Origin: Verrucomicrobiota bacterium
Lineage (GTDB): Bacteria; Verrucomicrobiota; Verrucomicrobiia; Opitutales; Opitutaceae
DNA: 64,000 nucleotides
Direction: 5' to 3'
Assembly: GCA_031387725.1 (NCBI GenBank)
Contig: JANNDM010000013.1
Location: 7,134-71,133, forward strand
Shown here: piece after piece, positions 28,787 to 64,000 of the stretch
Layout: the number at the start of each line of letters is the position of its first letter
Position numbering within the stretch: the first letter of the stretch is position 1
The notes under the pieces: generated by a model
Told to the model about the DNA's origin: nothing
Seen by the model: only the letters and a program-made list of their open reading frames with translations
Databases searched by the model: none
Program-made: the position numbers and the translations under genes

Positions 28787-28816
28787 GATTTTTTTTGTTG
28801 CCCTCTGATCTAAATA

Positions 28817-28847
28817 TTCAAATATGGATGGCAAGTTCATTAGTGAA
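28817..28847. promoter_or_regulatory. Candidate IclR operators in divergent iclR / TonB receptor promoter
   Basis: TTCAAATATGGA (28817-28828) and TTCATTAGTGAA (28836-28847), same TTCA-N4-TGAA core as at 24623. Confidence 0.6.
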
Positions 28848-28891
28848 ATATTGCGCACCGGCGCAGCCCTGACCCTCAACCCCCACCGACC

Positions 28892-46812: not shown

Positions 46813-48240
46813 TCACAGCAGGGGTGACAGCGGTCGAAGCGCCGCCTCGGCAAATTTCAGGCGGAACGGTCGCCGGGCAAAGACAACGGGGTCGATTTCG
46901 CGACAGAGCGCAAAATCCTGCTCCAAGAGCTGCGCCAGTGCCGCATTGGCCTGGCGGGAATGGAAGAGCAAGTTGAGCTCAAAGTTCAGCCGGAGTGACC
47001 GGTAGTCCAGATTGGCGGAACCGACCATGGCCCACTGGCTGTCGGCCAGCGCGATCTTGGCGTGATGGATGCCGGCCGAGTATTCAAAGATGCGCACACC
47101 GGCGGCCAGCAGCTCGCCGTAATAGGACCGCCCGACGGTCAGAAGCAGCGGATGATCCGTTCGGGCGGAAATCAACAGCCGCACATCAACCCCGCGGCTG
47201 GCCGCAAGTTCAAGCGCGGCCAGCACGATGTCATCCGGCACAAAATACCCGGTGGCGATCCAGGCCCGCTCTTCCGCTTCATTGAGCAGACTGACGATGG
47301 TTTTGCTGATGGGTTCATTCCGACGGTCGGGTCCACCCAGCACGATATGCGCGAGTTCCCGGGGTGGCCCGGGATCTGCCGGGAAAAAGCGAGCTTCGGT
47401 GATCTTCTCTCCGGTGGCGAAAAACCAGTCGTCCGCAAAGACCTCCTGCAACTCGCCCGCGATGGATCCGGTGGCTTCCACCTGCACATCGCGCCAGGAG
47501 CCGAGAGCCGGCCCGGGATATTCGTGTTCGCGGCCGATGTTCATACCTCCGACAAAGGCTACCGTGCCATCGATGATCTGCAGCTTGCGGTGGTTGCGCA
47601 GATTCATGAAAAAGCGGAGTCGCCTGGGGTCCAGGCTTTGAAACCAGGAAAAATGTCCCCCGGCCTGCTGATAGTCAGCGAGCAAGTCTCCGGCCAGACC
47701 GGGTGATCCCACTCCGTCAAGGAGCAGCCGGACTATGACCCCGCGTCGAGCGGCCTCGGTCAGAAGCTGCAGAAATCTCCGGCCCGTTGGGTCGTTTTGC
47801 CAGATGTAGAATTCCAGATGGACATGATGCGTCGCCTTCCGGATCTGCTCCTCGAGGGCGGGATAAAATTCGTCTGCGTCGCGCAGAATCCGGAGCCCAG
47901 TCACGGAACTGACGGGCAGTTGGTTTATGCGGGACAGCAATTGCAGAAACTGTCGATCCCGGCCCGGCAGATCGGGCAGGAGAAGGGCGGTGGGGACATC
48001 GGTCGCGTTTGCGGGGACCTGTTGCCGTGAGATGCGGGCGGAGAAGAGATTTCGGCGCTTGAGCCGGCCCCGTTTCAACCGATCCGTGCCGATCAAGGCA
48101 TAGGCCGCCGCGCCCAGCACAGGGATGAAGAGGATCGCCCAGAGCCACGCCAGTGTGGCGGCGGGACGCTTTTTTAGCAGCAACAGGTGGGGGATAAAAC
48201 CCCACGTCGCAAAATAACAGGCGAGCCAAAGTGCTTTCAT
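46813..48240 (-). CDS. cls: Cardiolipin synthase
   Basis: N-terminal TM ATLAWLWAILFIPVLG; two HKD motifs (RNHRKLQIIDG, HAKIALAD); WRD. Confidence 0.9.
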   Translation of the reverse strand: MKALWLACYFATWGFIPHLLLLKKRPAATLAWLWAILFIPVLGAAAYALIGTDRLKRGRLKRRNLFSARISRQQVPANATDVPTALLLPDLPGRDRQFLQLLSRINQLPVSSVTGLRILRDADEFYPALEEQIRKATHHVHLEFYIWQNDPTGRRFLQLLTEAARRGVIVRLLLDGVGSPGLAGDLLADYQQAGGHFSWFQSLDPRRLRFFMNLRNHRKLQIIDGTVAFVGGMNIGREHEYPGPALGSWRDVQVEATGSIAGELQEVFADDWFFATGEKITEARFFPADPGPPRELAHIVLGGPDRRNEPISKTIVSLLNEAEERAWIATGYFVPDDIVLAALELAASRGVDVRLLISARTDHPLLLTVGRSYYGELLAAGVRIFEYSAGIHHAKIALADSQWAMVGSANLDYRSLRLNFELNLLFHSRQANAALAQLLEQDFALCREIDPVVFARRPFRLKFAEAALRPLSPLL

Positions 48241-49495: not shown

Positions 49496-49702
49496 TTAGG
49501 GGGCCTTCGAGCCACGGAGCAGGCCGGCGGCGCCCACGATGGCGGCGGCGATGCCACCAAGGAGCAGCCACATGGTCTTGTCGGTCGGGTTGCCGGTGAA
49601 GAAGCGGGAGATCCCGGAGGCCGTGGAATCGGAGGCGGCCACGCCGGAGATGATGAGTATGACGCCGATGACAAGCAGGGCGAGGGAGACGGGTCTGTTC
49701 AT
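49496..49702 (-). CDS. DUF3185 small membrane protein
   Basis: [22 protein letters not shown]. Confidence 0.8.
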
Positions 49703-49799: not shown

Positions 49800-50531
49800 T
49801 CAGCCCTTCACGGTCATCTTGTTGGTGACGGAATTCACGCCGCGGACGTCCTTGGCGAGTTTGGTGACGAGGGATTTCTCGGCGTCGGAGGCGGCCTCAC
49901 CGGTGACGAGGACCACGCCGTCGGATGTGACAATCTTGGTCTTGAGGGCGCTGGTGGACTTGTGGGTGAGCAGGGCAAACTTGACCTGGCTGGTGATGGA
50001 GGCGTCATCGATCTTCTCGCCCAGGGTGGGCTTGTCGGTGACGACGATGTCATTCTGCACGCTTTTCACGCCGTCGATGTCCTTGGCGTAGATGGCGGTC
50101 AGTTCCTTCTGCGCGAGATTGTCCGCGGTGCCGCTCAAGGTGACATGGGCATCCTTGACCTCGACCTTGGTCGTGGCGGCGCTGACATTGCCCTTCACGA
50201 GCAGGCGTCCACGGATCTTGAAGGCCATCCAGCCGTCGGACTTCTCGGGATAGGCCGGATCGACCTTGATCTCGTTGTTGATGCGGATGACCCCCGGGAG
50301 GTTTTCCACGGTGTCGGCGGCGAGGTCCCGGTCGGCTTTGTCCTGGACCGTGCCGGTGAGGGTGACGACGCCGTCATCGGCCTTCACCTTCACATGATCC
50401 TCAAGGACGGTGCGGTAATTGTAGGAAGCCTTGGCGGCGTCCTCGATCTTGCGATCGGTGGCATGGGAAGCGAACAGCGCGAGCGGGCTGGCGATAAGTA
50501 ACAGCAGGGCGGATAGATTTTTGTTTTTCAT
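49800..50531 (-). CDS. OsmY-like protein with three BON domains
   Basis: Start MKNKNL; signal peptide; GVVTLTGTV, SDGWMAFKIRGRL, IDDASITSQVKFAL. Confidence 0.85.
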   Translation of the reverse strand: MKNKNLSALLLLIASPLALFASHATDRKIEDAAKASYNYRTVLEDHVKVKADDGVVTLTGTVQDKADRDLAADTVENLPGVIRINNEIKVDPAYPEKSDGWMAFKIRGRLLVKGNVSAATTKVEVKDAHVTLSGTADNLAQKELTAIYAKDIDGVKSVQNDIVVTDKPTLGEKIDDASITSQVKFALLTHKSTSALKTKIVTSDGVVLVTGEAASDAEKSLVTKLAKDVRGVNSVTNKMTVKG

Positions 50532-50545
50532 GGATTGAGTGACAG

Positions 50546-50589
50546 ACCATACGTGATGTTGTCCGCCGTTGATATGGGGCATTGCCCAC
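50546..50589 (-). promoter_or_regulatory. RCCCCAT-N22-(-10) promoter of BON-DUF3185-DUF1328-DUF883-YqjE-YqjK-cls operon
   Basis: GTGGGCAATGCCCCAT (50574-50589), 22 nt, TATGGT (50546-50551). Confidence 0.65.
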
Positions 50590-50666
50590 CCCCGCCGGTG
50601 ACGGCGGGGTGAGCCGTCGCACCGGCGGGGCGGTAAACGGAAAACCCCCGCCGGTGAAGGCGGGGG
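50590..50666 (-). terminator. Terminator of the autotransporter gene plus a second related hairpin
   Basis: CCCCCGCC-GGTGAA-GGCGGGGG (50645-50666) followed by TTTT on the minus strand. Second hairpin CCCCGCCGGTG..CACCGGCGGGG (50590-50630) shares the same core sequence. Confidence 0.6.
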
Positions 50667-50694
50667 GTGAAACCGATCCGGCCGAAAGCCGGGA

Positions 50695-53637
50695 TTAGAA
50701 GATGACCGATAGACCGATGTTCCATTCATCGAGCACGCGGGTCGTGCCACCGCTCTGGGTGATCACGTTGGTATAGAGCAGGGCGCTGGGTCCGAGCACG
50801 AGGTCGAGGCCGGCGCTGTAGAGCGCGGAGTCGCGCGGGGCCCGGTGGGTCCTGACGGAGTAGCTGGTGTTGCCGAACGAGGCGCCGATGCGGCGGGTGC
50901 TGTTGTAGAACTCATGGAGCCAGGCGGCGCGGACGTGCGGTTGGAACATGCCGAGCTTCACGCGAGCCTCTGCTCCGAGCTGCGAGCGCAGGGAGGTGGC
51001 GCTCTGGCGGCCGACATTGGCGGAGAACGCTCCGGCGCCTTGCTCGGTGAAGCCGTTGGCCGACCAGCGGCTGTAGAGCAGCCCGCCAAAGGGCGATACG
51101 GTTACCACGCCGGCCTTCATGTGCTGCCCGACGGTGATCCCGGTGGTCCACTGGTGGCCGCGGGTGGACGAGGTGGCGATGGCGGAGGTGCCCGGGAACA
51201 CGATGGGGCGCGTGGACTCGTAGCGGTTGAAGCCGTAGGCGAGCATCGCCTCCGCAAACATTGGACCCTTGGCCGAGCCGGCGCGCAGGCCAAAGGTCTG
51301 GTCCTTCACGGTCGTCTGGCTGCCGGCCGAACCAAGGCCGGAGGTTGTCCGACCGAAGGTAAAGAAGGCCCCGACGGTGGTGTCCGCGCTGATGGCGTGG
51401 TTTCCGCCGACCAGGCCGTAGTTGCTGGTGTAGCGGCTCGAACCGACATCCGCATCGGACCGGGACCGGCCGTGGCGTTTGCCGGCCTCGAAGTAGTATT
51501 CGTCATGTCCGGTGACCGCGCGGTCATCGCGCAGGAGGCGGTCGGCGAGGGAGGTCGAGTGCGCGAAGGCGAAGTCAGACCAGATTTGGTAGCCCTGGGG
51601 CGAAATGGCGTTGAGCGAGCTCGGGAACTGGCTGGCGAGGGGCAGGGTGTTGAGGGCCGCGGTCTGGGTCGGGGTGGCCTGCGCGGCGGCGCCGACGGCC
51701 GCTTGGTTGGGCGTCGTGGCGAAGCCGGCGAAGGGCAGCTGCGTGAAGACGAGGGTCGCACTGGTCGGGGCATACACCACGCTGACCGCGGTGGCGGCGC
51801 TGGGGGTGGCGCCGGTCAGGGTGCCGAAGGTGCCGCTGACACTGCTGGCCGTGAGGAAGGTGAAGGACTGTCCCAGCGGATTGAAGCCACCGAGGATGGA
51901 ATATTGCAAGGTGCCGGCAAGCGCGGCCGTGCCGGTCATGATGAGCCGGTCGAACGACGCGGCCGAGGCGATCTCAATGAGGAGGAGACCGGTGGAACCT
52001 TGCGTGTAGTTGCCCGTGACATTGATCGTGCCGGGCGAGGTGCCGGGGCTGACCGTGCCGTTGTTGGTGAGGAGGCCGATGACGGTGCCGGTGCCGCCGA
52101 GAGTGGCGCCGGGGGAGACGGTGGTCGCGCCGACGCCGTTGCTGAAGAAGAACGAGCCGGCCTGGACATCAATCGGTGACGTGGTCGCGGTGGTCAGGGT
52201 GAGCGTGCCCGTGCCGGTTTTCTGGACCCGGCCGCCGCCGGTGATGGCGCCGCCGAACGTGCCACTGGCGCCCTGGTTGAAGACCAGCGTGGCGACGGGG
52301 AGGATGGCGATGGGCCCGTTGGCCGGCAGGGAGGCGGTGCTGGCGATCAGCGTGCCGGAACTCACGTTGGTGCCACCCGTGTAGGTGTTGGCGCCGGTGA
52401 GGGTGGTCGTGCCGACGCCCTGCTTGGCGACCGTGCCGTTGCCGGAAATCACGCCGCCGAACGAGCCGGTCAACGGCTGGTTGAGGGTCAGGAGGCTCGA
52501 GTTGAGGGTGATGGGCCCGTTCACGGGCAGGGTCTGGCTGGTGGCAATGAGCGCACCGTTGTTCACAATGGTGCCGCCGGTGTAAGTGTTGCCGGTGCCG
52601 GTCATGGTCACGGTGGCCGTGTTGATCGTCAGAGAGGCCGGGGCCGACCCGTTCGAGGAATTGCCATCAAGGGTCAGAGTCGTGGTGGGGAGGCTCGTGC
52701 CCGGGACCAGGACCACGCCGGAGGTTCCCGTCACAAAGAGGCCGGTCGAGCTGAGAATGACGTTGCCGGTGAACACCGGGGCCGGCGGCGGCGGCGGCGG
52801 CGGCGGGATCGGCACCAGCTGGCCAAGGCCGTTATACATCAAACCGCCATCGAAGTCGCCGCCACCGGGACCGCCCAAGGGGTTGAATCCGCCGGGGGCC
52901 GGGCCGGCGAACGTGACGGCGGCCCCCGCCAAGGCTCGAACGCCGCCACCGGCCAGAGTGTTGGTGCTGCCGGTAAAGTTGATAGAGGTGCCCGCCATGT
53001 AATTGCCCAGGACCGTATTGGTGTCGCCGATCGTGATGCCCGCCGCGGCGTTCCAGAAGAGGCCGTTATCAGAGCCGCCATTGGTGCCGAGGTTGATGAA
53101 GGTGACCGTCGAATTCGCGGCGGTGGTGAGGCTGGTGCCGATATTAAAAACCCAGGCCACGCCGTTCTGAAAATTGGCGTCGAGGACGAGCGCCCCGGTC
53201 TGTTGCGCGGCGACGCCAAACGAATAAACCCCCGCTTGCAGCGGGGCCAAAGTCCCGAGATCCTGACCGGACAAAAGGTTGGCCGGGGCGCTGATCGGCA
53301 AGGCGAACAGGGCATTCCGGGCCGTGATGAGATCCAGCCCCGCCTGGCCGGTGGCGCCGCCGGTGGCGACGATCGCCGCCGGGCCGGCCGTAAGCGTCGT
53401 GCCAGAAACCGTCCCATTGGCCGGAAAGCCGACGATGTTGGTGGTGGCGGCGCTGGAGAGACCGACGTTGCCGTTAACGATCGGATTGGGACCAGGTGCG
53501 GCGATGGTGATGCCGGTGCCGCCGAGCAGCGCGTAGTTACTCGCGGTAAGCAAAACTTGGGCGGAGCCGGACACCGCGGCGAAAAGCAGCCCGGCAACAG
53601 CCAGCACCGGCAAGGGGATAAGATTATTAATTTTCAT
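50695..53637 (-). CDS. Autotransporter with N-terminal ice-binding-like (DUF3494) domain, poly-Pro linker and passenger repeats
   Basis: Start MKINNL; SNYALLGGTGIT..GNVGLS..GVYSF..LVLDA..WVFNIGTSLTTA..LFW (DUF3494-like); PPPPPPPP; GANTYTGGT repeats; barrel RAAWLHEF..GLSVIF. Confidence 0.82.
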   Translation of the reverse strand: MKINNLIPLPVLAVAGLLFAAVSGSAQVLLTASNYALLGGTGITIAAPGPNPIVNGNVGLSSAATTNIVGFPANGTVSGTTLTAGPAAIVATGGATGQAGLDLITARNALFALPISAPANLLSGQDLGTLAPLQAGVYSFGVAAQQTGALVLDANFQNGVAWVFNIGTSLTTAANSTVTFINLGTNGGSDNGLFWNAAAGITIGDTNTVLGNYMAGTSINFTGSTNTLAGGGVRALAGAAVTFAGPAPGGFNPLGGPGGGDFDGGLMYNGLGQLVPIPPPPPPPPAPVFTGNVILSSTGLFVTGTSGVVLVPGTSLPTTTLTLDGNSSNGSAPASLTINTATVTMTGTGNTYTGGTIVNNGALIATSQTLPVNGPITLNSSLLTLNQPLTGSFGGVISGNGTVAKQGVGTTTLTGANTYTGGTNVSSGTLIASTASLPANGPIAILPVATLVFNQGASGTFGGAITGGGRVQKTGTGTLTLTTATTSPIDVQAGSFFFSNGVGATTVSPGATLGGTGTVIGLLTNNGTVSPGTSPGTINVTGNYTQGSTGLLLIEIASAASFDRLIMTGTAALAGTLQYSILGGFNPLGQSFTFLTASSVSGTFGTLTGATPSAATAVSVVYAPTSATLVFTQLPFAGFATTPNQAAVGAAAQATPTQTAALNTLPLASQFPSSLNAISPQGYQIWSDFAFAHSTSLADRLLRDDRAVTGHDEYYFEAGKRHGRSRSDADVGSSRYTSNYGLVGGNHAISADTTVGAFFTFGRTTSGLGSAGSQTTVKDQTFGLRAGSAKGPMFAEAMLAYGFNRYESTRPIVFPGTSAIATSSTRGHQWTTGITVGQHMKAGVVTVSPFGGLLYSRWSANGFTEQGAGAFSANVGRQSATSLRSQLGAEARVKLGMFQPHVRAAWLHEFYNSTRRIGASFGNTSYSVRTHRAPRDSALYSAGLDLVLGPSALLYTNVITQSGGTTRVLDEWNIGLSVIF

Positions 53638-53653
53638 AGTAGGAGGTGGGGGG

Positions 53654-53697
53654 AGAATACGTGCCATGGCCTCCGGCCGATATGGGGCAAAACCCTC
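53654..53697 (-). promoter_or_regulatory. RCCCCAT-N22-(-10) promoter of the autotransporter
   Basis: GAGGGTTTTGCCCCAT (53682-53697), 22 nt, TATTCT (53654-53659). Extra GCGGGAAAAATCCCCG further upstream. Confidence 0.65.
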
Positions 53698-53794
53698 CCA
53701 TCCCAACCGGCCCCGACCGGCACCGGAATTTTCTTGCGGCGGTTGCCGAAGGGTGAACCGGGGATTTTTCCCGCAGAGTTTCCCCACTGACGGA

Positions 53795-54517
53795 CTAGCG
53801 GTGAGGCTTGGCGGTCGGCGGCCCCGGGGGGTGGTCTGGGATTTGAAAGGCCGGCTCATGCTGCCAGGCGTCCGCGCCCGCCGCGACGGGCCGGGCGGGC
53901 AGATCCGCTCTTTGCGCCCTGACGACGGCGGGATCAATTTTCAGTTCCCGATTGCGCCCGGCCACCATTGCGGGGTCCAGCTGCCCGTCGGCCGTGAAGC
54001 CCATCATCAGCTGCGGCAGGCCGAGCGGGATTTCGTCGCCGCGGTCCACCTGCCACAACGTCCAGGTTTTCCCGTAGGTGGTGACGAACATTTTCATCAG
54101 GTTCATTTCCTCCGCGGAGGAAAGGCCGGTTGCCGTCAGGAGGCCGGACATAACTTCGTAGCGGTGGCTGTGCCACAACTGTTTTTCCGCCCCGGGCAAT
54201 TGGTTGAACCGCTCCTCGCTGATGATGTATTCGACCCCGATCAGGCGGGCGTCGGGCCGGTCCGAATCGTAGACGACACATTGCATGACACCGGTGGCGG
54301 CGTGGGAGCAGTAATGCTCGACTCGCACCGCCCGCTTCATGTCGCCACTATAGAAATGGAACCCTCCCAGGTGCGCGTGAATGGAACCGAGGGGTCCGGT
54401 CGCGGCCAGCGGGGTGGTCCCGGGATCGGGGGTGACATGACCGCCGGGCGGGGTTTGCGCGCCCAGTGAGAGGGAGAGCAATCCTGCGCCGAGCAGGCTT
54501 TTCAGAAACGTGGTCAT
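53795..54517 (-). CDS. OBAP/DUF1264 family protein, secreted
   Basis: Signal peptide; HYCSH, QCVVYDSD, RLIGVEYIISE, WHSHRYEV, TYGKTW. Confidence 0.82.
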   Translation of the reverse strand: MTTFLKSLLGAGLLSLSLGAQTPPGGHVTPDPGTTPLAATGPLGSIHAHLGGFHFYSGDMKRAVRVEHYCSHAATGVMQCVVYDSDRPDARLIGVEYIISEERFNQLPGAEKQLWHSHRYEVMSGLLTATGLSSAEEMNLMKMFVTTYGKTWTLWQVDRGDEIPLGLPQLMMGFTADGQLDPAMVAGRNRELKIDPAVVRAQRADLPARPVAAGADAWQHEPAFQIPDHPPGPPTAKPHR

Positions 54518-54623
54518 GAGGAGATTGTTATCGGGAGGTGAGGTGATCAGAGCGATGACCCGACCGCCAACCTCATGACCGCGGGCGGCGACCAGGGTTC
54601 AGCCCAATGAGTGAATGCCTGCA

Positions 54624-54667
54624 CCCTTGAACACCCCATAGCCGGACAACGGCACACCCTGCAATCT
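54624..54667 (+). promoter_or_regulatory. RCCCCAT-N22-(-10) promoter of the diheme cytochrome
   Basis: ACCCCAT (CCCCAT 54634-54639), 22 nt, CAATCT (54662-54667), ATG 6 nt later. Upstream CAGGGTTCAGCCCAAT at 54593-54608. Confidence 0.5.
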
Positions 54668-54673
54668 TGGGGC

Positions 54674-56080
54674 ATGTCTCGCTTCATTGCCCCGCCCGTG
54701 GTTTGCCTCTTGGCTTTGTTGCTCCCGGCCGAGCCTGGCCTGCACGCTCAGCCGGCAGCCGACCCGGCGCTGCCGGCCGCTAGTTACATGACCGTCAACA
54801 GCGCCGAGCCGCTCGCTGTCGTCCGGCAACGCATGGAGCAGGCGAAGCCGGCGATCATGCAGGCGCACCGGGAATTTCTGGCGGAGCGCTATGACCTGGC
54901 CGACCGGCCGGTGGCCGGCGTGACGATGTCCCGCGGCAAGGCCGTGCAGCAGGGCGTTCGCGCCCGGCTCAAGCCGGGCATCAGCTGGGAGATGCTGGCG
55001 GCCTTGTCTTCCGACGAGATCCGGACGCGGGATCTTTGGCCGGCCGGGTTCCAGCCCCTGCCACACCCCAATCACGCGGAAGGCGGCATGGTGTTTCCAC
55101 AGTTTGTCCTCGATGAACTCAAACGACAGGAGCAGCGCGACCTGACGCGGTTCGATCTCGATTATGACCTGCCGGATCATTTTTTGCCGGAGTTTCCCGG
55201 GGCCATCTTCCTGACCACGCGCCCCGACCTCGGCGACGTGTCGCAGGGCCGGGTCGTGACCCTCGACAATTACTTCGGGCTCTTCAACGGCGTCCTGAAT
55301 CCCAAGCAGCTCGAGGGCCTGCGGCTGCTGCTCACGCCCTTTCCGCAGCAGCAGTTCAACAGCACGGACGACCGTCGCTCCGCCCGCGCCAGCCGCGGCG
55401 TCGCCTGCCTCGACTGCCACACCAACGGCCACACCAACGCCGGGACCCACCTTGCGGGCGACGCCCGGCCGCAGGCGTTCCGGCATCGAATCGACACACC
55501 CAGTCTGCGCGGGGTGAACATCCAGCAGCTCTTCGGCTCGCAGCGCGCGCTGAAGAGCGTGGAGGACTTCACGGAGTTTGAGCAGCGCGGCGCCTATTTC
55601 GACGGCGACACCGTGATCGCCGTGAAGAAGGGCGCCAACGTCCTCGACCGCGGCAGCCAGGTGCACGCGATGGCCGAGATGCAGGCGTTGTTCGATTTCC
55701 CCCCGGCGCCGAAGCTGAATGTATTCGGCAAACTGGATCCCGCCCGGGCCACGCCGCCCGAACTGCGCGGGCAGGAATTGTTTTTCGGCAAGGCCCGGTG
55801 CGTCTCCTGCCATGTGCCGCCTTACTACACGGACAATTCCATGCACGACCTGCAAACCGGCCGCTTTTTCGCCCCAAGGATGATCCGCGGCGCCAGGTTG
55901 ACGGCCGACGGCCCGATCAAGACCTTCCCTTTGCGCGGCCTCAAGGAGTCGCCGCCCTATCTCCACGACGGGCGGCTGCTCACGCTCGCCGACACCATTG
56001 AATTCTTCAACCTGATCCTGGGGACGCGGCTCACGATGGAAGAGAAAGCGGAGCTGGAGGCGTTTCTCCGCGTGCTCTGA
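54674..56080 (+). CDS. Diheme cytochrome c, bCcP/MauG superfamily
   Basis: Signal peptide; CLDCH and CVSCH; DTPSLRG; KTFPLRGL..PPYLHDG. Confidence 0.82.
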   Translation: MSRFIAPPVVCLLALLLPAEPGLHAQPAADPALPAASYMTVNSAEPLAVVRQRMEQAKPAIMQAHREFLAERYDLADRPVAGVTMSRGKAVQQGVRARLKPGISWEMLAALSSDEIRTRDLWPAGFQPLPHPNHAEGGMVFPQFVLDELKRQEQRDLTRFDLDYDLPDHFLPEFPGAIFLTTRPDLGDVSQGRVVTLDNYFGLFNGVLNPKQLEGLRLLLTPFPQQQFNSTDDRRSARASRGVACLDCHTNGHTNAGTHLAGDARPQAFRHRIDTPSLRGVNIQQLFGSQRALKSVEDFTEFEQRGAYFDGDTVIAVKKGANVLDRGSQVHAMAEMQALFDFPPAPKLNVFGKLDPARATPPELRGQELFFGKARCVSCHVPPYYTDNSMHDLQTGRFFAPRMIRGARLTADGPIKTFPLRGLKESPPYLHDGRLLTLADTIEFFNLILGTRLTMEEKAELEAFLRVL

Positions 56081-56137
56081 GCGGAGCCGTCTGGCTTCAG
56101 TGCGGCCTGGGGTGGGGCCAGGTTTCCGCGTCGTCCT

Positions 56138-56181
56138 ACCCACAACACCCCATTGAGGCCGCCGCCCGGGTCCTCTATCAT
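56138..56181 (+). promoter_or_regulatory. RCCCCAT-N22-(-10) promoter of lipoprotein/outer-membrane pair
   Basis: ACCCACAACACCCCAT (56138-56153), 22 nt, TATCAT (56176-56181). Confidence 0.6.
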
Positions 56182-56240
56182 CCTGAAGTGACAGCTCGGA
56201 ATCATCCGGACCGTCATCCAGGAAAACACAAGAATCCATC

Positions 56241-56549
56241 ATGAACCTTCAGAAAAAACTTGGCGCAGGGCTGCTCGCGTTGGTGATCGGACTGGCGCTG
56301 ACCGCCGCCGGCTGCGGCGAGGGCGAAAAGGAAATCACCCTCAAATTCGCCGACTGTCCTGCGGCCGTGCAGAAGACGATTCTGGACTTCGCGGGCGGCG
56401 TCCAATTCCCCGAAGTCGACCGGGAGACCAAGAAGAGCGGCCGCGTTGTCTACGAAGCCAAGGGCAAGAAGGCCGACGGCAAGAAGATCGAAATCAAGGT
56501 CGCGGCTGACGGGAGCTTGGTCGGACTCGAAAACGAGTTTGAAAATTGA
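56241..56549 (+). CDS. Small lipoprotein, PepSY/BLIP-like fold
   Basis: Lipobox TAAGC; CPAAVQKTI..VVYEA..IEIKVAADG pattern. Confidence 0.65.
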   Translation: MNLQKKLGAGLLALVIGLALTAAGCGEGEKEITLKFADCPAAVQKTILDFAGGVQFPEVDRETKKSGRVVYEAKGKKADGKKIEIKVAADGSLVGLENEFEN

Positions 56550-57568
56550 GCATGGACCGCACCACGAACGGATCGGTTGGCTGGAAACGGTTGGCGAGGG
56601 TGGCCGGACGATGGCACCGGGCCGGGGCAAACCTGGCTGTGATGGGCTTCGCCTTGCTGGCGGCCGGCAGCGGCCTGGCCGCCGCGATTGGCAACCGGGT
56701 TCCGCCCAACACCGGTGCGGCGGTCAAGCCCGCCGCCGCTCCCTCTGTCCTTGGGGATGACGAGTTGATCATCGAGGAGGTCTTTACCAGCCATCTGCCA
56801 GCCACCTTGCAGAAGTATCGCTTCCGGCTTTCGGTCAATCCGCACCTGGGTGACTGGCAGAGGAAGGAACATATGCGCCTGACCACCAGCCTGCGCTACG
56901 GTCTCACGGAGAATTTCGAGCTCAGCGCCAGCAGCCACCTGTTTTTCAGCCACGGGCATGGCGCCATCCGGGCTTTCGATGACTATGGGGCGGCGAATCT
57001 AAAACTCGGCGTAAAAGTTAATCTCGGGCAGCCCCTGTTCGCCGGCTGGGAAACCGGCGTCGGCGTCAACTACGAATTCCCGGTCGGCCGGCCGCCGCCG
57101 GAATTGACCGACGGGCTGCGCCACCTCCGCCCCTACGTCACCTTCTCCCACCGGCTGGAGTCGCGCCCGGCGGTGCGGATTTTCGTGGGCTTCCGGCTTG
57201 ATAGCGTGACAAAAACCACCTTGCCGGGAGAGTTTGGGAAAAATGCGTTCCGGCAGAGCTCCACGGGGATCACCGGGGGCTGGGTGATTGATCGCGGCAA
57301 TCTGCACTACACCTTCGAGGCTTCGTTCGACAGCACCCGGTTGCTCAGCCGAACCGAGGAGGACGTCTACTCCATCCGGCCCGGTGTGCTCTGGGAAATA
57401 CCCACGCGCCGCAACCGCGAGATCCTGAGCCACTGGGTGGTCGGCTTTGCCTTGAACAACACTTTTGGCCCGGGTGGCAACAGTCTCGGCGCTTCATTCA
57501 AACTTCGCTACAGCCGCGACCTGAAACTCCGTTTGCACCGCCACCGGCCAAACGCCGCGCGGGATTAG
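56546..57568 (+). CDS. Hypothetical, probable outer-membrane beta-barrel protein
   Basis: ATGA overlap with the previous gene; hydrophobic leader; alternating beta-strand pattern (LRYGLTENFELS, GVGVNYEFP, YTFEASF). Confidence 0.55.
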   Translation: MSMDRTTNGSVGWKRLARVAGRWHRAGANLAVMGFALLAAGSGLAAAIGNRVPPNTGAAVKPAAAPSVLGDDELIIEEVFTSHLPATLQKYRFRLSVNPHLGDWQRKEHMRLTTSLRYGLTENFELSASSHLFFSHGHGAIRAFDDYGAANLKLGVKVNLGQPLFAGWETGVGVNYEFPVGRPPPELTDGLRHLRPYVTFSHRLESRPAVRIFVGFRLDSVTKTTLPGEFGKNAFRQSSTGITGGWVIDRGNLHYTFEASFDSTRLLSRTEEDVYSIRPGVLWEIPTRRNREILSHWVVGFALNNTFGPGGNSLGASFKLRYSRDLKLRLHRHRPNAARD

Positions 57569-57608
57569 TCCGGGACCGCCCGCGCGGGGAGCCGCGGGCC
57601 TTCCGACT

Positions 57609-58583
57609 TCAGGCGGCGTGAACGAGGACGGTGGGACGCAGGGATTTGCGGTTCACACCCTGCAGCCGGGCGCGATAGCGGACCGGTGCTTCACCCACGA
57701 CCCGGCGGAACACGCGGTTGAATTGGGACAGCGACTGGAAACCCGCCGCGTAGGCCGCTTCGCTGATGCGGATCTGGGGATTGAGCAGCTTCTGCTTCAC
57801 CACTTCGACGCGTTCGCGCGCGACATATCGGGTGAAGGTGAGGCCGGTCGCTTCCCGGAAAATCCGGCAGAAATAACAAGCGCTCATGTTCACCGTGCGC
57901 GCCACGTCACTCAGCAGCAGTTTTTCGCTGGAATGCTCGGCGATGAACGTGCGCACTTTGACGACCGCCGCCGGTTCGGTGGTGGCGGCGCTCAGCAGCA
58001 GCTGGTTGCTGACCGCCGAGAGATGCCGGGCAAAAATGGCGAGGAGCCGGATGATCGAGTCATACTGTTTTCTGGCGAGCACCGGAGTCCGGAAATACGC
58101 GGCCGCCAGCTCGCTCGGACCGGCCTGGGCCGCCGGAACTGCGCGGGTCGCTTCCTTGAGGAGCTTCCGGGAGGGCGCGCGGAGGAACACCTGCCCCGTC
58201 TGGAGGTAGCCGAGGACCGTATCGCCGAGTCGCACCGGCACGGCGGATTCGCTCAAGCCGGCATAGCACTCCATGGTTTTTGGCCCAAGCATCGCCGCTT
58301 GCTCCAGGCGTTGCTGCAAACGCAGGCAGGCGGCACAGGTCTGGTTGCCGAGAATCATCAGGGTGCAAAAAGAATTCGCCCGGCGGGAGCCTTGCAGCGG
58401 CGTCCGGAAAGATCCCGCTTCCCGCAGCACCAAGGGCAAGCCCGTGGTGCCTTCAAACGCCTCCTGAAACTCGCGGAAGAGTTCGGATTGCCGCAGTCGC
58501 GCCACCATCGTGGCGGCCGGCCTCCCCCCGGCCGAGGCCGGGGGGACGGAAGCGATCGCAAAGGGGAGGTCCGGGTAGATCAT
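57609..58583 (-). CDS. AraC-family regulator with N-terminal PocR sensor domain
   Basis: FEGTTGLPL, FCTLM..C, ECYAGLSESAVPV..LGYLQTGQV; AraC HTHs (VNMSACYFCRIF, AAYAAGFQSLSQFNRVF). Confidence 0.88.
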   Translation of the reverse strand: MIYPDLPFAIASVPPASAGGRPAATMVARLRQSELFREFQEAFEGTTGLPLVLREAGSFRTPLQGSRRANSFCTLMILGNQTCAACLRLQQRLEQAAMLGPKTMECYAGLSESAVPVRLGDTVLGYLQTGQVFLRAPSRKLLKEATRAVPAAQAGPSELAAAYFRTPVLARKQYDSIIRLLAIFARHLSAVSNQLLLSAATTEPAAVVKVRTFIAEHSSEKLLLSDVARTVNMSACYFCRIFREATGLTFTRYVARERVEVVKQKLLNPQIRISEAAYAAGFQSLSQFNRVFRRVVGEAPVRYRARLQGVNRKSLRPTVLVHAA

Positions 58584-58662
58584 GCGGGATACTGCTTCAG
58601 GAGATGCACGAGAGGCCGTTCGCGGCGGCGTTCGGTCGAATGCGCCACGGGATGTGGCATAC

Positions 58663-59703
58663 CTACTCGTTTGTCAGGATTACTTTCAATGCGCGTTCCC
58701 GGCCGGCGTGGCCGAAGGTGTCGTAGGCTTTCATGATTTCCCCGAGTTGGAAGTGATGCGTGACGAGTTGCTTCGGCTTGAGCTTGCCCGCCATGACGGT
58801 CTTGAGCAGCAGCGGCGTTGTCACCGCATCGACCAGACGCGTCGTGAGAGTGATGTTGTGCGACCAAAGTTTTTCGAGTCGCAACGACACGCTCGCTCCG
58901 TGCACGCCGATGTTGGCGATATGGCCGCCGGCCGCCACGATCTGCTGACAGATCTCAAACGTGGCGGCCATGCCGACCGCCTCGATGGCGACATCGACTC
59001 CCTGGCCGGCCGTCAGGGCCAGGACTTTGTCGACGGCATTGCCGTCGGTGCTGTTGATCACCTCGGTCGCGCCGAACTGCTGGGCGACCTCGAGCCGGTT
59101 GTCATCGAGATCGATGGCGATCAGGCGGGCGGGCGCATAGAATTGGGCCGTCAGCAGCGCGGAGAGGCCCACGGGGCCGGCCCCGACGATGGCCACGGTG
59201 TCTCCGGGTTGGACCGCGCCCTTGAGCACGCCGCATTCAAAGCCGGTCGGCAGAATATCGCTGAGCATGACCATCGCATCCTCATCCGCGCCGTCGGGAA
59301 TCGCATGGAGACTCGTGTCGGCAAAGGGAATCCGGACGAACCCGGCCTGGGTGCCGTCAATCGTGTTGCCGAGGATCCAGCCGCCCTGCTCGCAGTGCGA
59401 CGGCATGCCGCGCCGGCAGTTCCCGCACTTGCCGCAGGCGGTGATGCACGAGATCAGGACGCGTTCGCCCTGGCGAAAACGTGTCACACCGGCGCCGGCC
59501 TCGTCGATGATACCGATGCCTTCGTGGCCCAGGATGCGGCCGACCGCGACGGTGGGCACGTCGCCTTTCAAAATGTGCAGATCGGTGCCACAGATCGTGG
59601 TCTTGGTGACGCGCACGATGGCGTCGGTCGCGTCGCGCAACGCGGGCTTCGGCGCTTCCGCAAAGTCTTTCTTGCCGGGGCCGAGATAGATGAGGGCTTT
59701 CAT
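58663..59703 (-). CDS. Zinc-dependent alcohol dehydrogenase (MDR family)
   Basis: ICGTDLHI, GHEG, CGKCGNC..C, LSDILPTG, GAGPVG. Confidence 0.92.
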   Translation of the reverse strand: MKALIYLGPGKKDFAEAPKPALRDATDAIVRVTKTTICGTDLHILKGDVPTVAVGRILGHEGIGIIDEAGAGVTRFRQGERVLISCITACGKCGNCRRGMPSHCEQGGWILGNTIDGTQAGFVRIPFADTSLHAIPDGADEDAMVMLSDILPTGFECGVLKGAVQPGDTVAIVGAGPVGLSALLTAQFYAPARLIAIDLDDNRLEVAQQFGATEVINSTDGNAVDKVLALTAGQGVDVAIEAVGMAATFEICQQIVAAGGHIANIGVHGASVSLRLEKLWSHNITLTTRLVDAVTTPLLLKTVMAGKLKPKQLVTHHFQLGEIMKAYDTFGHAGRERALKVILTNE

Positions 59704-59837
59704 GAGGGGAGGATGGGCAGACAGTCGGGGCGGTAAAGTAGACCGGAGCCTGGCTCGGGGTGCCCGGCGGCGCGAAGTGGGTTCCGGTGGACGGCCAAGA
59801 TATTCATCGTTCCGGTTGGCCGGTTCAGGCCAACGGT

Positions 59838-60011
59838 TTAGTCGGGCGACAGCTCTCTTTTGGCCTGTTCCCAGTGCGCCTTCGACACATCCAGGGCGGA
59901 ACCACCACCGGCGACAGCCAGTTCCACGGCGCGCTCGCGCAGCAGCTTCCGCGTGACCGGATCGTGGTAATGCTCCGGGATGGCGCCTTGGGTGGGAGGG
60001 AAGTCGTCCAT
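59838..60011 (-). CDS. DUF2934-like small protein
   Basis: LRERAVELA..HWEQAKREL resembles the DUF2934 pattern. Confidence 0.5.
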   Translation of the reverse strand: MDDFPPTQGAIPEHYHDPVTRKLLRERAVELAVAGGGSALDVSKAHWEQAKRELSPD

Positions 60012-60062
60012 TGGATTACCGGGCAAGACGAGGAGGGCGCGGCCGAGTCCAGTCCGGGCGTT

Positions 60063-60758
60063 CTACGCGGCCGGTTTGGCCACGGCGTGCTCCGCCGTGT
60101 GTTGAATGGTCGCTTTGGAAAGATTTACATAAACCGTCGAGTCGGGATAGCTGATGCGCTCCACGTCGCCCGACGAGATCAGGATTTCCTTGCCGGAATA
60201 CCAATGCCCGGACTCGACCGTCAGTTGACTGATGGCCCAGTTGGTGTCGTCCACCATGAATCCCGTCACCGTGCCGAGATCCCCGTCGACGGCGTGGATG
60301 GCGTAGCCGGTCACGGCGCGCGTGCTTTGGAGATGCTTGTCATCGCGATGGTGAAACATGTGCTGCGTCGCCGAGTCAGCCTTGGCCGGTGGCATGACTC
60401 GCGGATAGCCGCTCAGGCCCCACATCCCTTTCCCCTCCCAGTAGGCGGGCCAGCCGTAGTAGCGGTAGTATTCGACCTCATATTGACGCGAAACGGGCTT
60501 GTGGGATTCGATCGAGGGACTGTGCTCCACCTGCTTTTTGTCCAGTTTGACGCGCAAGGACTTTTCCTGCCGGTCCCAGGCGCCAAAGGCGTGGGGGGTG
60601 AGCAAGATCAGGCGTCCGGCCAGCCAGCTGGCGGTATCGGCGACCAGATAACGGATCACCCAGGTTTTATCATCAAAGTAAAAGTCCTTGATCTGGCCGA
60701 TCTCGCCATCGGTGGCCGCCAGTTTGTGGCCGTAGAGCTCTGAGGTATTGTGGAGCAT
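60063..60758 (-). CDS. Tandem PRC-barrel protein
   Basis: Start MLHNTSEL; ATDGEIGQIKDFYFDDKTWVIRYLVADT; second barrel AVDGDLGTVTGFMVDD. Confidence 0.85.
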   Translation of the reverse strand: MLHNTSELYGHKLAATDGEIGQIKDFYFDDKTWVIRYLVADTASWLAGRLILLTPHAFGAWDRQEKSLRVKLDKKQVEHSPSIESHKPVSRQYEVEYYRYYGWPAYWEGKGMWGLSGYPRVMPPAKADSATQHMFHHRDDKHLQSTRAVTGYAIHAVDGDLGTVTGFMVDDTNWAISQLTVESGHWYSGKEILISSGDVERISYPDSTVYVNLSKATIQHTAEHAVAKPAA

Positions 60759-60792
60759 GAAGGGAAGGTGGCTGCGGGGTGTATTGCGGCGC

Positions 60793-60993
60793 TTAGGCCT
60801 TGACCGAAACCGCAGTAAACTGCGATCGATGTCCGGTGGGATTCGTGCGCAGGAACGCCGCGGCTTCGAACCAGTGGGCAAGATCGTTGCCCGACTGGCA
60901 GTTGCCCTGTTCGTAGAGATGATAGGCGTAACTGCGGATATCATCCTCGCTGATCGTCGGCGGAGCGGGCAAACGGGGAGAATGGCTTTTCAT
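60793..60993 (-). CDS. DUF2934 protein
   Basis: IRSYAYHLYEQ..G.DLAHWFEA. Confidence 0.75.
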   Translation of the reverse strand: MKSHSPRLPAPPTISEDDIRSYAYHLYEQGNCQSGNDLAHWFEAAAFLRTNPTGHRSQFTAVSVKA

Positions 60994-61046
60994 GGGTGAT
61001 CCGGGCAGGTGGAAACAGGCCCCGCCTCCCGTGGGGGTGCGGCGGG

Positions 61047-61379
61047 TTACCTGACGATCAGGTTGTTCTTCACTTCCTTGACACCCTTGACCGCCGAAGC
61101 GGCTTTCCCGGCGGCCGACTTCTGCGCCGCCGTGTCCACAAAGCCGCTGAGCTGAACCACGCCCAAGACCGTCTCGACACTGACGGCGAATGACTTCACG
61201 TCATCATTGCCCAGCAGGGCGCTCTTCACCTTGGTCGTGACGACCGCATCGTCCACGTATTCACCGGTGCTGGTGCTCGTGGAGGTGGAAGCGCAGCCGC
61301 CCGTGAGGACGCCAAGCGAGAGAACGCCGGCCACTGCGAGCAGTGAGGCCAGTCGGGAGATTTGGAGGAATGTTTTCAT
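61047..61379 (-). CDS. BON-domain lipoprotein
   Basis: Lipobox LTGGC; TGEYVDDAVVTTKVK, VQLSGFVD, VKEVKNNL. Confidence 0.88.
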   Translation of the reverse strand: MKTFLQISRLASLLAVAGVLSLGVLTGGCASTSTSTSTGEYVDDAVVTTKVKSALLGNDDVKSFAVSVETVLGVVQLSGFVDTAAQKSAAGKAASAVKGVKEVKNNLIVR

Positions 61380-61452
61380 GGTAGGGGGTTGAATTTAATT
61401 TCTGCGTGCTTGCTTGATTTGTTTTTGAGGCTGACGGGTTTCGTCTCAGCGG

Positions 61453-61496
61453 AATGTAAGCGAAAGGGCGCACAGGCAATATGGGGTGTAACCCGC
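61453..61496 (-). promoter_or_regulatory. RCCCCAT-N22-(-10) promoter of BON-DUF2934-PRC operon
   Basis: GCGGGTTACACCCCAT (61481-61496), 22 nt, TACATT (61453-61458). Confidence 0.65.
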
Positions 61497-61565
61497 CGGG
61501 CTTAGTCCGGCATGTCGCTCGCGCGGCGGCCTGTGGCTTCGAGGGTCCGAAAGAGGGGCTGCAGC

Positions 61566-61639
61566 GCGGGAGCCCACCCATCAGAGTTTCGAGTGTGGGT
61601 GAATGCCCCATGGGAACGGTTGCCGCAGCATGCTACCTT
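61566..61639 (+). promoter_or_regulatory. RCCCCAT-N22-(-10) promoter of DUF3309 gene with tandem upstream site
   Basis: GCGGGAGCCCACCCAT (61566-61581); TGGGTGAATGCCCCAT (61596-61611), 22 nt, TACCTT (61634-61639), ATG 6 nt later. Confidence 0.62.
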
Positions 61640-61645
61640 GCGGCC

Positions 61646-61801
61646 ATGAATCCACTCCTTCTCATCATTGTCCTGTTGCTATTGTTTGGTGGCGGCGGGT
61701 TCTACGTAGGCGGTCCTGCGTATGGCGGCGGCGGGCTGGGCCTGATCGTCCTGATCTGTCTCGTCGTCTATCTGATGGGCGGCATGCGCCCGAAAAAATG
61801 A
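61646..61801 (+). CDS. DUF3309-like small membrane protein
   Basis: MNPLLLIIVLLLLFGGGGFY..GGGGLGLIVLICLVVYLMG. Confidence 0.75.
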   Translation: MNPLLLIIVLLLLFGGGGFYVGGPAYGGGGLGLIVLICLVVYLMGGMRPKK

Positions 61802-62399: not shown

Positions 62400-64000
62400 C
62401 TAAAGGGGAGTTTGCTCCGGCTGGCCCGCGATGGCCACGCTCCACTTCCACTTCCGGATTTCCGGCAGATCCTCGCCGTGCTTCGCGATGTGGCGCTTGT
62501 GTTCGCCCAGCTTGGCCTTGAGCAGCAGCTGCAAGCCCAAGCCGGCCTCGCCGGTTTGCGGCAGGCGATCGATGGTGTCCATCACGAGGTGAAAACGATC
62601 GAGATCGTTGAGGACCGTCATGTCGAACGGGGTCGTGACCGTGCCCTCTTCCTTGTAACCCCGCACGTGGATATTGTGGTGGTTGGTGCGGCGGTAAGTC
62701 AGCCGGTGGATCAGCCACGGATAACCGTGAAACGCAAAAATCACCGGCTTGTCCGTCGTGAAGAGTGCGTCGAAATCGCGGTCGCTCAACCCATGGGGGT
62801 GTTCGCGTTCCGGCTGCAGCTTCATGAGATCGACGACGTTGACCACGCGGATGCTCAAGGCGGGCAGGTGCTCGCGCAGGATCGAAAAGGCGGCGAGCGT
62901 CTCCAGGGTCGGCACATCGCCGCAGCACGCCATGACCACGTCGGGCGAAGCGCCCTCGTCGTTGCTGGCCCAGTGCCAGATGCCGATGCCTTTGGTGCAG
63001 TGGCTGGCGGCGGCGGCCATCGTCAGCCATTGCGGCGCCGGGTGTTTGCCGGCGATCACGACGTTGACGTAGTGCCGGCTGCGCAAGCAATGGTCCATGA
63101 CCGAGAGCAGGCAGTTCGCATCCGGCGGCAGATAGACGCGCACGACCGCCGCCTTCTTGTTCACGACGTGGTCGATGAAGCCGGGGTCCTGGTGGGTGAA
63201 GCCGTTGTGATCCTGGCGCCAGACGTGCGAGGCCAGCAGGTAGTTCAGCGACGCGATTTTGGGCCGCCACGACAGCTGGGACGAGACCTTCAACCACTTC
63301 GCGTGCTGGTTGAACATTGAATCGACGATGTGGATGAACGCCTCGTAGCAATTGAAGAGCCCGTGCCGGCCGGTGAGCAGGTAGCCTTCCAACCAGCCTT
63401 CGCACTGGTGCTCGCTGAGCATCTCCAGCACGCGGCCGGAGGGTGCGAGCCGTTCGTCCGTCGGCTCGGTCCCGGCGTTCCATTGGCGTTTCGTGACTTC
63501 AAAGAGTGCTTCGAGTCCGTTCGAGAGCGTCTCATCCGGGCCGAAGACCCGGAAATTTCTCTGCTCCTCGTTGAGCTTCGCCACATCGCGCAGGAAGGGC
63601 CCCAACACATGGGTGTCGCCGATGCCGGGGGTGCCGGGCGCGGGCACGTCGGCGGCGTAGTCGCGGAAATCCGGCATCCGCAGATCGCGCAGTAACAGGC
63701 CGCCATTGGCGTGGGGATTCGCCCCCATCCGGCGTTCGCCCTTCGGCGCGAGTTCGGCCAGCTCCGGTATCAGTCGGCCCGACGCAGCAAAGAGTTCCTC
63801 CGGCCGGTAGCTCCGCAGCCACTCTTCCAGCAGCCCGAGGTGCCCGGGATGGGCGGCCGGGTGCAGCGGCACCTGGTGCGAGCGGAAGGCGCCTTCCACC
63901 GGCCGGCCGTCGACCACCTTGGGTCCGGTCCAGCCTTTGGGTGACACGAGGATGATCATCGGCCAGTGCGGGCGTTGGGCGTGGCCGCGCCGGCGGGCGT
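62400..64000 (-). CDS. xfp: Xylulose-5-P/fructose-6-P phosphoketolase, 5' end outside window
   Basis: [66 protein letters not shown]. Confidence 0.93.

Follow-up and report, generated by a model that had tools for sequence, protein, structure and literature searches.

A rigidly spaced operator upstream of general-stress genes in the PVC superphylum and its candidate NarL/FixJ-family regulator

General-stress or survival genes are controlled by the alternative sigma factors sigma-B in Bacillus and sigma-S in Escherichia coli, by the PhyR-NepR-EcfG system in Alphaproteobacteria and, in Mycobacterium tuberculosis, by the response regulator DosR/DevR with its kinases DosS and DosT. Here we describe a promoter element that precedes genes of this kind in a 64,000-nucleotide window (C114:7134-71133, where C114 is a contig) of an Opitutaceae metagenome-assembled genome (MAG; 3.73 Mb, 64% G+C, 218 contigs). 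An initial annotation of the window had drawn attention to six promoters with RCCCCAT exactly 22 nt upstream of a -10 box. The element is an operator of 18-21 bp whose 3′ end, ACCCCAT, occupies -41 to -35, exactly 22 bp from a TAnnnT -10 box, and it recurs across the PVC superphylum (here Verrucomicrobiota, Lentisphaerota, Kiritimatiellota and Planctomycetota) with the consensus GGTAGGGTWACACCCCAT-N22/23-TAnnnT, the left half being degenerate in this genome. Judging from sequence, we think it probable that a conserved NarL/FixJ-family regulator is the class II activator of the general-stress regulon to which the six sites would belong. We found no published description of the motif in the searchable literature, literal motif strings included, subscription journals being outside that coverage, and as far as could be found it has not been described how PVC bacteria control their general stress response. 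The regulon and operator are new but of a known mechanistic kind, with an unusual depth of conservation and a concrete candidate regulator, in a group that includes abundant soil, freshwater and gut lineages.

The candidate regulator is, like DosR/DevR, a NarL-family response regulator, with DevR among its matches in the PDB. Both systems have GGG...CCC inverted repeats, with the promoter-proximal site overlapping -35, and both serve a multi-locus gene set (for survival or dormancy in M. tuberculosis) in a host with many leaderless mRNAs, as we predict here. The two regulators are not orthologous, however, since DevR matches no more closely than at the level of the family, with E = 3.7e-27 and a place after VraR and NarL. 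The DosR box is said to be TTSGGGACTWWAGTCCCSAA, with GGG and CCC triplets 8 nt apart, whereas the triplets at our sites are 5-6 nt apart and the site is asymmetric; neither a DevR orthologue nor the 20-bp DosR box was found for this system. The gene sets differ as well, with BON, CsbD, OsmC and ice-binding-like proteins here and USP, hspX and nitroreductases there, and the kinase here combines PAS domains with a KaiBC link in place of GAF-haem sensing. Another NarL-family activator, NreC of the Staphylococcus NreBC system, reportedly recognizes TAGGG-N4-CCCTA. Binding of NreC to a GC-rich palindrome has been reported (PMC5694512, PMC8139620), and GC-rich palindromes upstream of target promoters are also found in this genome, which has two perfect dyads, TAGGGC-AAG-GCCCTA and TAGGGT-TGC-ACCCTA. 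The spacer here is one base longer than in the NreC site, the dominant site (ACCCCAT) is asymmetric, the regulon is one of general stress and not nitrate respiration, the phylum is another, and there is no evident Fe-S PAS oxygen sensor. With differences in orthology, in the operator and in the content of the regulon, the system belongs to neither DosR/DevR nor NreC.

NarL itself binds in a 7-2-7 arrangement of TACYYMT heptamers. The likeness to these heptamers noted by the initial annotation holds for the half-site, as ACCCCAT is likewise C-rich and agrees at 5/7 positions in either register, and the kinase is also of HisKA_3 type, but it does not extend to the arrangement. The half-sites here are everted (ATGGGGT...ACCCCAT), with a spacer of 3-4 bp instead of 2 and a fixed position relative to -10, and no facing TACYYMT heptamers 2 bp apart were found at these sites. 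With the sigma-B, sigma-S and EcfG systems the regulon shares CsbD, YflT, OsmC, OsmY/BON, YciF/DUF892, PRC and dodecin effectors, KaiC-like and receiver (REC) proteins in the circuit, and regulatory genes within the regulon itself. It departs from them in a geometry that misfits a sigma factor's -35/-10 pair and in the conserved regulator linked to it, a two-component system; an extracytoplasmic function (ECF) sigma factor is among the targets in Opitutaceae alone. CRP/FNR class II promoters resemble ours in having an activator site that ends at -35, no -35 hexamer, a requirement for a good -10 box and fixed spacing, while the candidate regulator is a response regulator with a LuxR-type helix-turn-helix (HTH) and the operator is centred near -43, not -41.5.

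Promoter geometry, conservation and regulon

The six sites of the initial annotation are all present at the coordinates and on the strands it gave, and each precedes a gene or operon, as it had claimed. RCCCCAT-N22-TANNNT is matched exactly in five, and the sixth (54631-54667, +) has CAATCT as its -10 box. The exact pattern has six matches in the window against 0.04 expected from dinucleotide shuffles; the match that is not among the annotated sites, at 34653 (+), lies within coding sequence, scores below the threshold of our position weight matrix (PWM) and is probably due to chance. CCCCAT by itself is not enriched in the window (28 against 48 expected), so the signal lies in the combination and its spacing. 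Across the genome RCCCCAT-N22-TAnnnT has 18 matches, compared with 0-5 at each other spacing from 14 to 30, which bears out both the fixed 22-nt spacing and the rise above background. Iterating the PWM over the genome yielded about 30 convincing sites clustered on four contigs, with nine on C114 (three just outside the window), seven on C73, five on C85 and two on C110. At about a third of the roughly 30 sites a start codon follows 5-10 nt past the -10 box.

To avoid selection bias, a logo was built from 148 distinct sites of this genome and its relatives that had been chosen on ACCCCAT and the -10 box only. It reads G-51 T A G G G T/C W A C A C C C C A T-35 R G C-32, followed by T-12 A-11 nnn T-7, the three positions at which the -10 box is conserved. 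When sites were picked by the upstream element alone, AnnnT stood at the identical offset in 24/36 sites of this genome and in 168/229 sites of the relatives, with neighbouring offsets reaching 14 at most; the spacing is therefore rigid. The start codon of a real open reading frame (ORF) lies 4-10 nt past the -10 box at 35% of 149 sites, with a peak at 5-6 nt, compared with 9.7% at random positions. Start codons this close behind the -10 box fix the direction of the promoter and place the operator at about -52 to -35, and many of the mRNAs are therefore predicted to be, and probably are, leaderless. Transcription is predicted to start 7 nt past the -10 box, often on the A of the start codon. 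By comparison, Cappable-seq in Akkermansia, which is also a verrucomicrobium, gave about 10% leaderless starts (PMC4782308).

In this genome a clear -35 element, TTGAC/TTGC at the normal spacing of about 17 bp, is seen at the tRNA promoters, which also have a stretch rich in A upstream. At the stress promoters the -35 hexamer is absent, and positions -34 to -30 hold little information. In coordinates that rest on the predicted transcription start, itself derived from start codons 5-7 nt past -10, the operator spans -52 to -35 and abuts the -35 position with its centre near -43; the class II activator geometry suggested at the outset thus stands. We also considered look-alikes of sigma-32 or sigma-54 promoters (CCCCAT as a -10 element, TGGCAC), which were rejected because orientation and spacing misfit and the start codons fix the direction.

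When the left arm of the operator is compared with ACCCCAT in reverse complement, the best fit is obtained with a spacer of 3 bp (mean 2.98/7, with 24 sites at 5/7 or better, compared with at most nine sites at any other spacer). The two perfect dyads of this genome named above are TAGGG-N5-CCCTA variants, and in other PVC lineages ATGGGGT-N4-ACCCCAT forms perfect 7-4-7 palindromes of 18 bp at the same distance from -10. Dyads of this kind, whether perfect or partial, suggest an HTH protein that binds as a dimer. The symmetry reported by the initial annotation as GNGGG-N6-CCCAT is better described as (T)AGGGT-N3-ACCCCA centred near -43, and the extra copies that it placed further upstream are not recurrent, there being no positional enrichment upstream of -52. 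The palindromic form is in the minority (L222, L252, L304, L334 and L357 among the loci that have it); the majority form is GGTAGGGT-TAC-ACCCCAT, with the arms one base closer, so that two operator geometries occur at the same promoter position.

Conservation was assessed with an exact-pattern scan for GTAG-N4-ACACCCCAT-N22-TANNNT over one genome per species (185,579 species), which returned at least 120 loci. Among the matches listed, 66/80 are in PVC lineages, namely Opitutia, Limisphaerales, Pedosphaera, Verrucomicrobiales, Akkermansiaceae, Lentisphaerae/Victivallales, Kiritimatiellae, Pirellulales, Phycisphaerae and Sedimentisphaerales. About 10/80 of those listed have the full consensus in MAGs with non-PVC labels, and about 4/80 resemble chance (Bacillus, Rickettsia, Bacteroidaceae and Colivivens). 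MAGs labelled Acidobacteriota, Solirubrobacteraceae or Bifidobacteriaceae bear the complete PVC operator and in some cases the regulator orthologue (L178, L190, L204, L208, L213, L233, L240, L325, L357). These labels are probably binning or labelling errors, and the signature could therefore serve as a PVC marker. Positions that the pattern left unspecified are 79-95% conserved (G-47 0.95, G-46 0.85, T-45 0.79, G-33 0.82), giving the PVC consensus cGGTAGGGTWACACCCCATRGC; further on, C is favoured at -1 and A at +1, and A-rich leaders follow. Within the family, about 25 Opitutaceae genomes retain GGTAGCACAACACCCCAT-N22-TAnnCT, with a start codon close behind, before an orthologous ECF sigma gene. 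By the relatives of this ECF sigma, the present genome is an Opitutaceae near Lacunisphaera.

Assigned by Pfam and NCBIfam, the genes behind the motif in this genome encode three BON proteins, a PRC+BON protein, a PLDc_N small membrane protein, dodecin, CsbD, OsmC, two ice-binding-like proteins (one being the 980-aa autotransporter of the window), KaiC, a single-domain receiver protein, a REC-histidine kinase hybrid, an ECF sigma and acetate kinase. Motif-bearing loci of the Opitutaceae relatives have sigma factors (30), BON (29), Ice_binding (12), PRC (7), DUF3309 (4) and KaiC (3). PVC-wide, the genes behind the motif encode BON (15), PRC (5), REC (5), Ice_binding (4), CsbD (4), DUF5670 (4), OsmC (2), DUF892 (2) and YflT (2), with phosphoketolase, SOD and Hsp70/GrpE in addition. 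This is the repertoire of a general stress response. The proposal of a single regulon gains from the agreement between these sets, as the roughly 30 sites precede general-stress families and the same families bear the motif in relatives and across PVC phyla, all of which suggests common control. With this gene set behind the PVC-wide sites, the signature is therefore a general-stress promoter of the whole superphylum and no local peculiarity, so that the finding is larger than first described. From the DNA signature the stress regulon, with its transcription starts, can be predicted for any genome or MAG of the PVC group, and as a compact stress-inducible promoter the signature could serve PVC genetics.

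A candidate regulator weighed against other readers

The initial annotation could not identify a regulator within the window, and the candidate is indeed encoded on another contig (C85:5423-6106). It has an N-terminal receiver and a C-terminal GerE/LuxR-type HTH, the domain composition of a NarL/FixJ-family response regulator, with full-length NCBIfam matches to MctR/UvrY/NarL-type models and VraR, NarL, DesR and DevR as its best PDB relatives. The adjoining gene encodes a HisKA_3-type kinase with the H-box EEERKKISRELHDD and ends where the regulator gene begins, and the best-scoring motif site of the genome lies directly downstream of the regulator gene. Of the regulator types put forward at first, the NarL/FixJ family is the one upheld, as a NarL/VraR/DevR-family response regulator with a HisKA_3 kinase is the sole regulator found consistently beside the motif across the superphylum; nothing links the local PocR-AraC regulator to it.

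The association was found in both directions. Starting from the motif, 10-12 of the 120 motif loci (8 kb each) hold a full-length orthologue of the regulator at 52-63% identity, where we estimate that about 0.2 would be expected by chance; paralogues within this genome reach at most 38% identity. When all ORFs of the 120 loci were clustered without bias, the HisKA_3 kinase (13 loci), a multi-BON protein (13) and the regulator (9) came out on top, and no sigma factor was among the recurrent clusters. Starting from the regulator, motif density is 10.5 per 100 kb around 80 Opitutaceae orthologues, compared with about 0.9 genome-wide. A further 79 orthologue loci outside Opitutaceae (Kiritimatiellae, Lentisphaerae and other Verrucomicrobia) were fetched with a Kiritimatiellae protein. 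Around these, ACCCCAT-N22-TAnnnT occurs 89 times and the N23 form 48 times, with other spacings at 1-6, and at least one N22 site is present in 54/79 loci; the unspecified left half is again GGTAGGGTT. The 89 and 48 sites (loci L281-L359) compare with the 22-bp form only in our own genome (18 against 1). The kinase orthologue is directly upstream of the regulator in 64/80 Opitutaceae and 72/79 other loci, and from phylum to phylum neither the HTH as a whole nor its recognition helix, IKTVEKHR, varies, in parallel with the invariance of the operator.

We hypothesize that a dimer of the C85 regulator would bind the operator after phosphorylation by the HisKA_3 kinase encoded immediately upstream. 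The bound regulator would act as a class II activator that stands in for the missing -35 contact, and it would bring in RNA polymerase with either RpoD or the RpoS-like group-2 sigma to read the -10 box. The targets of this activation would be envelope proteins and protectants of the desiccation or osmotic type (BON, PRC, CsbD, OsmC, dodecin, ice-binding-like), with phosphoketolase, acetate kinase and signalling genes (KaiC, REC proteins, the ECF sigma) in addition. A wider proposal, which we advance tentatively and at a little below an even chance, is that the PVC superphylum runs its general stress response through one ancient HisKA_3/NarL-type two-component system and not through an alternative sigma factor. 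A KaiBC timer would feed into it in some lineages, the 18-21-bp operator and its 22/23-bp distance would have remained near-invariant since the phyla diverged, and the regulator would serve as a -35 substitute of fixed geometry. If true, a two-component system with a class II operator of unusually deep conservation would join sigma-B, sigma-S, EcfG and DosR as a further solution, with a named candidate master regulator and kinase.

Several observations weigh against a NarL-type activator. The motif stands directly upstream of the regulator's own gene in a few genomes only (L100, L110, L137), and co-localisation would also be expected if the regulator were merely a conserved member of a stress island. 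The dominant operator, GGTAGGGTWAC-ACCCCAT, is asymmetric, with the symmetry-breaking positions G-51, A-49, A-43 and C-42 conserved. A simple homodimer site would not usually look like this, and there could be a second reader; the fully conserved left half GGTAGGGT may reflect such a reader or an unusual non-symmetric dimer of the regulator. The arms occur at two spacings, N3 and N4. An element that is invariant over a whole superphylum and stands at a rigid distance from -10 is also more what one would expect of a sigma-factor promoter than of a site for a transcription factor. A sigma factor conserved in the PVC group, for example the RpoS-like one, might accordingly read ACCCCAT or the whole 20-bp element as a far-upstream "-35" and TAnnnT as its -10, with the response regulator just a member of the regulon. 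The regulon families are those under sigma-B, sigma-S and EcfG elsewhere, the element is asymmetric, rigidly spaced and the same throughout the superphylum, and a truncated RpoS-like gene is present in the genome, all of which would suit this explanation. We nevertheless regard it as unlikely. The distance from ACCCCAT to -10 is 22-23 bp, and about 27 bp separate A-11 from the middle of the upstream element, which to our knowledge is roughly 6 bp beyond the reach of region 4 in any known sigma-70-family holoenzyme. The housekeeping tRNA promoters use TTGAC at about 17 bp, the dyads point to a dimeric binding protein, and it is the kinase-regulator pair, not a sigma gene, that recurs in the motif loci. 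An inventory of sigma genes by tblastn on the genome gave RpoD, divided between the ends of two contigs (C24 and C202), one RpoS-like group-2 sigma and about nine ECF sigmas. The RpoS-like gene (C65:~28530-29140) is cut by a contig end, is the only non-ECF alternative sigma found, and is a candidate reader of TAnnnT.

An ECF sigma factor was at first favoured as the reader, on the strength of the motif upstream of its orthologues. On that account the motif would be the autoregulated promoter of an Opitutaceae sigma factor (C110:15305-16039), as for EcfG. This gene does bear the motif, with a leaderless ATG 6 nt past -10, motif and close start codon are kept upstream of the orthologue in the roughly 25 genomes mentioned above, and the sigma gene adjoins the response regulator in 17/80 Opitutaceae loci. 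We dropped this idea, which now seems to us very improbable, because the motif is PVC-wide while the sigma is confined to Opitutaceae, and because the geometry is wrong. The gene is near the regulator in 0/79 loci outside Opitutaceae and occurs in 2/120 motif loci, both from Opitutaceae, so it is better seen as a lineage-specific target. A promoter of one autoregulated alternative sigma would have its -35 and -10 elements 12-18 bp apart, and the 22-23 bp found here is incompatible with ECF geometry. In group 1 and 2 sigmas it is regions 1.2 and 2 that read the conserved T-12, A-11 and T-7, with region 2 reading A-11 and region 1.2 reading T-7, and ECF sigmas have no region 1.2 for the latter. 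The protein itself has 244 aa with N- and C-terminal extensions, and no anti-sigma gene adjoins its gene; a paralogue 50% identical to it (C43:860-2214) does have an adjacent anti-sigma gene, and a divergent NarL-type regulator. A DNA-binding protein of another kind could also read the operator, in which case the kinase-regulator pair would be a target or neighbour conserved within the stress island, or would act upstream in a cascade. The link to the regulator comes from co-localisation, the gene right after the regulator is regularly a motif target, which puts the regulator inside the regulon, and an asymmetric operator could be a composite site. We consider this quite unlikely, given that ORF clustering in the 120 motif loci revealed no other recurrent regulator family and that the recognition helix is as invariant as the operator. 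In addition, the TAGGG-N5-CCCTA variants of this genome come close to the TAGGG-N4-CCCTA site of NreC. NarL-family proteins are known to bind GC-rich inverted repeats, and for NreC a GC-rich palindrome is reported (PMC5694512, PMC8139620).

The family of the motif target downstream of the regulator varies. A conserved partner gene at this position was considered and rejected for that reason, and a 104-aa protein found there is confined to Opitutaceae. The regulator gene itself belongs to a run of seven genes on one strand (C85:5423-16233) that encode KaiC (with a long coiled-coil C-terminal extension), KaiB, a HisKA_3 kinase, a CheB-like protein, a CheR/CheB-PAS fusion, a PAS-HisKA_3 kinase and the NarL-type regulator. 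The stress operator within the run is found at the KaiC promoter only, and KaiC, KaiB, kinase and regulator are, we infer, co-transcribed as one operon. The run may be a non-cyanobacterial Kai output pathway, which the KaiBC link would make testable. KaiC (C85:14437-16221) is 88-91% identical to its counterparts in distant verrucomicrobial lineages (L311, L337, L342, L349), while the neighbouring response regulators reach only about 57-62%, which suggests extreme constraint or recent transfer of KaiC.

Promoters of the window and their genes

Promoter 1 (50546-50591, -) has the operator GGGGTGGGCAATGCCCCAT, followed after N22 by TATGGT (50546-50551), and scores 28.4 with the PWM; an ATG follows 14 nt past the -10 box. 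The first gene behind it encodes a triple-BON-domain protein (49800-50531, -), and the unit continues with DUF3185 (49496-49702), small membrane ORFs and a PLD-type, cardiolipin-synthase-like gene (cls; 46813-48240). Promoter 2 (53654-53699, -; operator GGGAGGGTTTTGCCCCAT, N22, -10 TATTCT, PWM 31.5) precedes the 980-aa fusion of an ice-binding-like passenger domain to an autotransporter beta-domain (50695-53637, -). At promoter 3 (54618-54667, +; PWM 23.9) the operator CACCCTTGAACACCCCAT is followed after N22 by CAATCT (54662-54667), and the transcript is predicted to be leaderless, with an ATG at 54674, 6 nt past -10. The gene that begins there (54674-56080, +) encodes a di-haem protein resembling MauG or cytochrome-c peroxidase, with weak family matches and no Pfam match.

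Promoter 4 (56134-56181, +; operator CCTACCCACAACACCCCAT, N22, -10 TATCAT, PWM 28.2) has a 59-nt leader and precedes a pair of genes (56241-57568, +), a lipoprotein (56241-56549) and an overlapping 340-aa ORF (56546-57568), with no family match for either. Promoters 5 and 6 are divergent. The operator of promoter 5 (61453-61498, -; N22, -10 TACATT, PWM 35.7), CGGCGGGTTACACCCCAT, is the nearest to the PVC consensus among the window sites; behind the promoter (60063-61379, -) are a BON lipoprotein (61047-61379) and a PRC-barrel protein (60063-60944). Promoter 6 (61593-61639, +; operator GTGTGGGTGAATGCCCCAT, N22, -10 TACCTT, PWM 24.8) probably also gives a leaderless transcript, judging by an ATG at 61646, 6 nt past -10. 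Its gene (61646-61801, +) encodes a 51-aa glycine-rich membrane peptide that the initial annotation had called DUF3309-like. Most of the gene labels given there (BON, ice-binding-like autotransporter, PLD-type cls, PRC, PocR-AraC) agree with our assignments; the di-haem label has only the weak MauG/peroxidase-like matches behind it, and 61646-61801 has no Pfam match to DUF3309, although DUF3309 genes in relatives do bear the motif.

A PocR-sensor AraC-family regulator (57609-58583, -) and a Zn-dependent dehydrogenase (58663-59703, -) lie inside the island without the motif, and a DUF1264 gene (53795-54517, -) between promoters 2 and 3 is without a recognizable stress operator of its own. A phosphoketolase gene (62400-64000, -) runs off the window and on to C114:71926. 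Beyond it (C114:73807-75811) lie genes for CsbD, OsmC and acetate kinase, of which the last two bear the motif and the acetate kinase gene has a leaderless GTG. Given its place beside the motif-bearing OsmC and acetate kinase genes, the phosphoketolase-acetate kinase route to ATP therefore appears to be part of the stress island.

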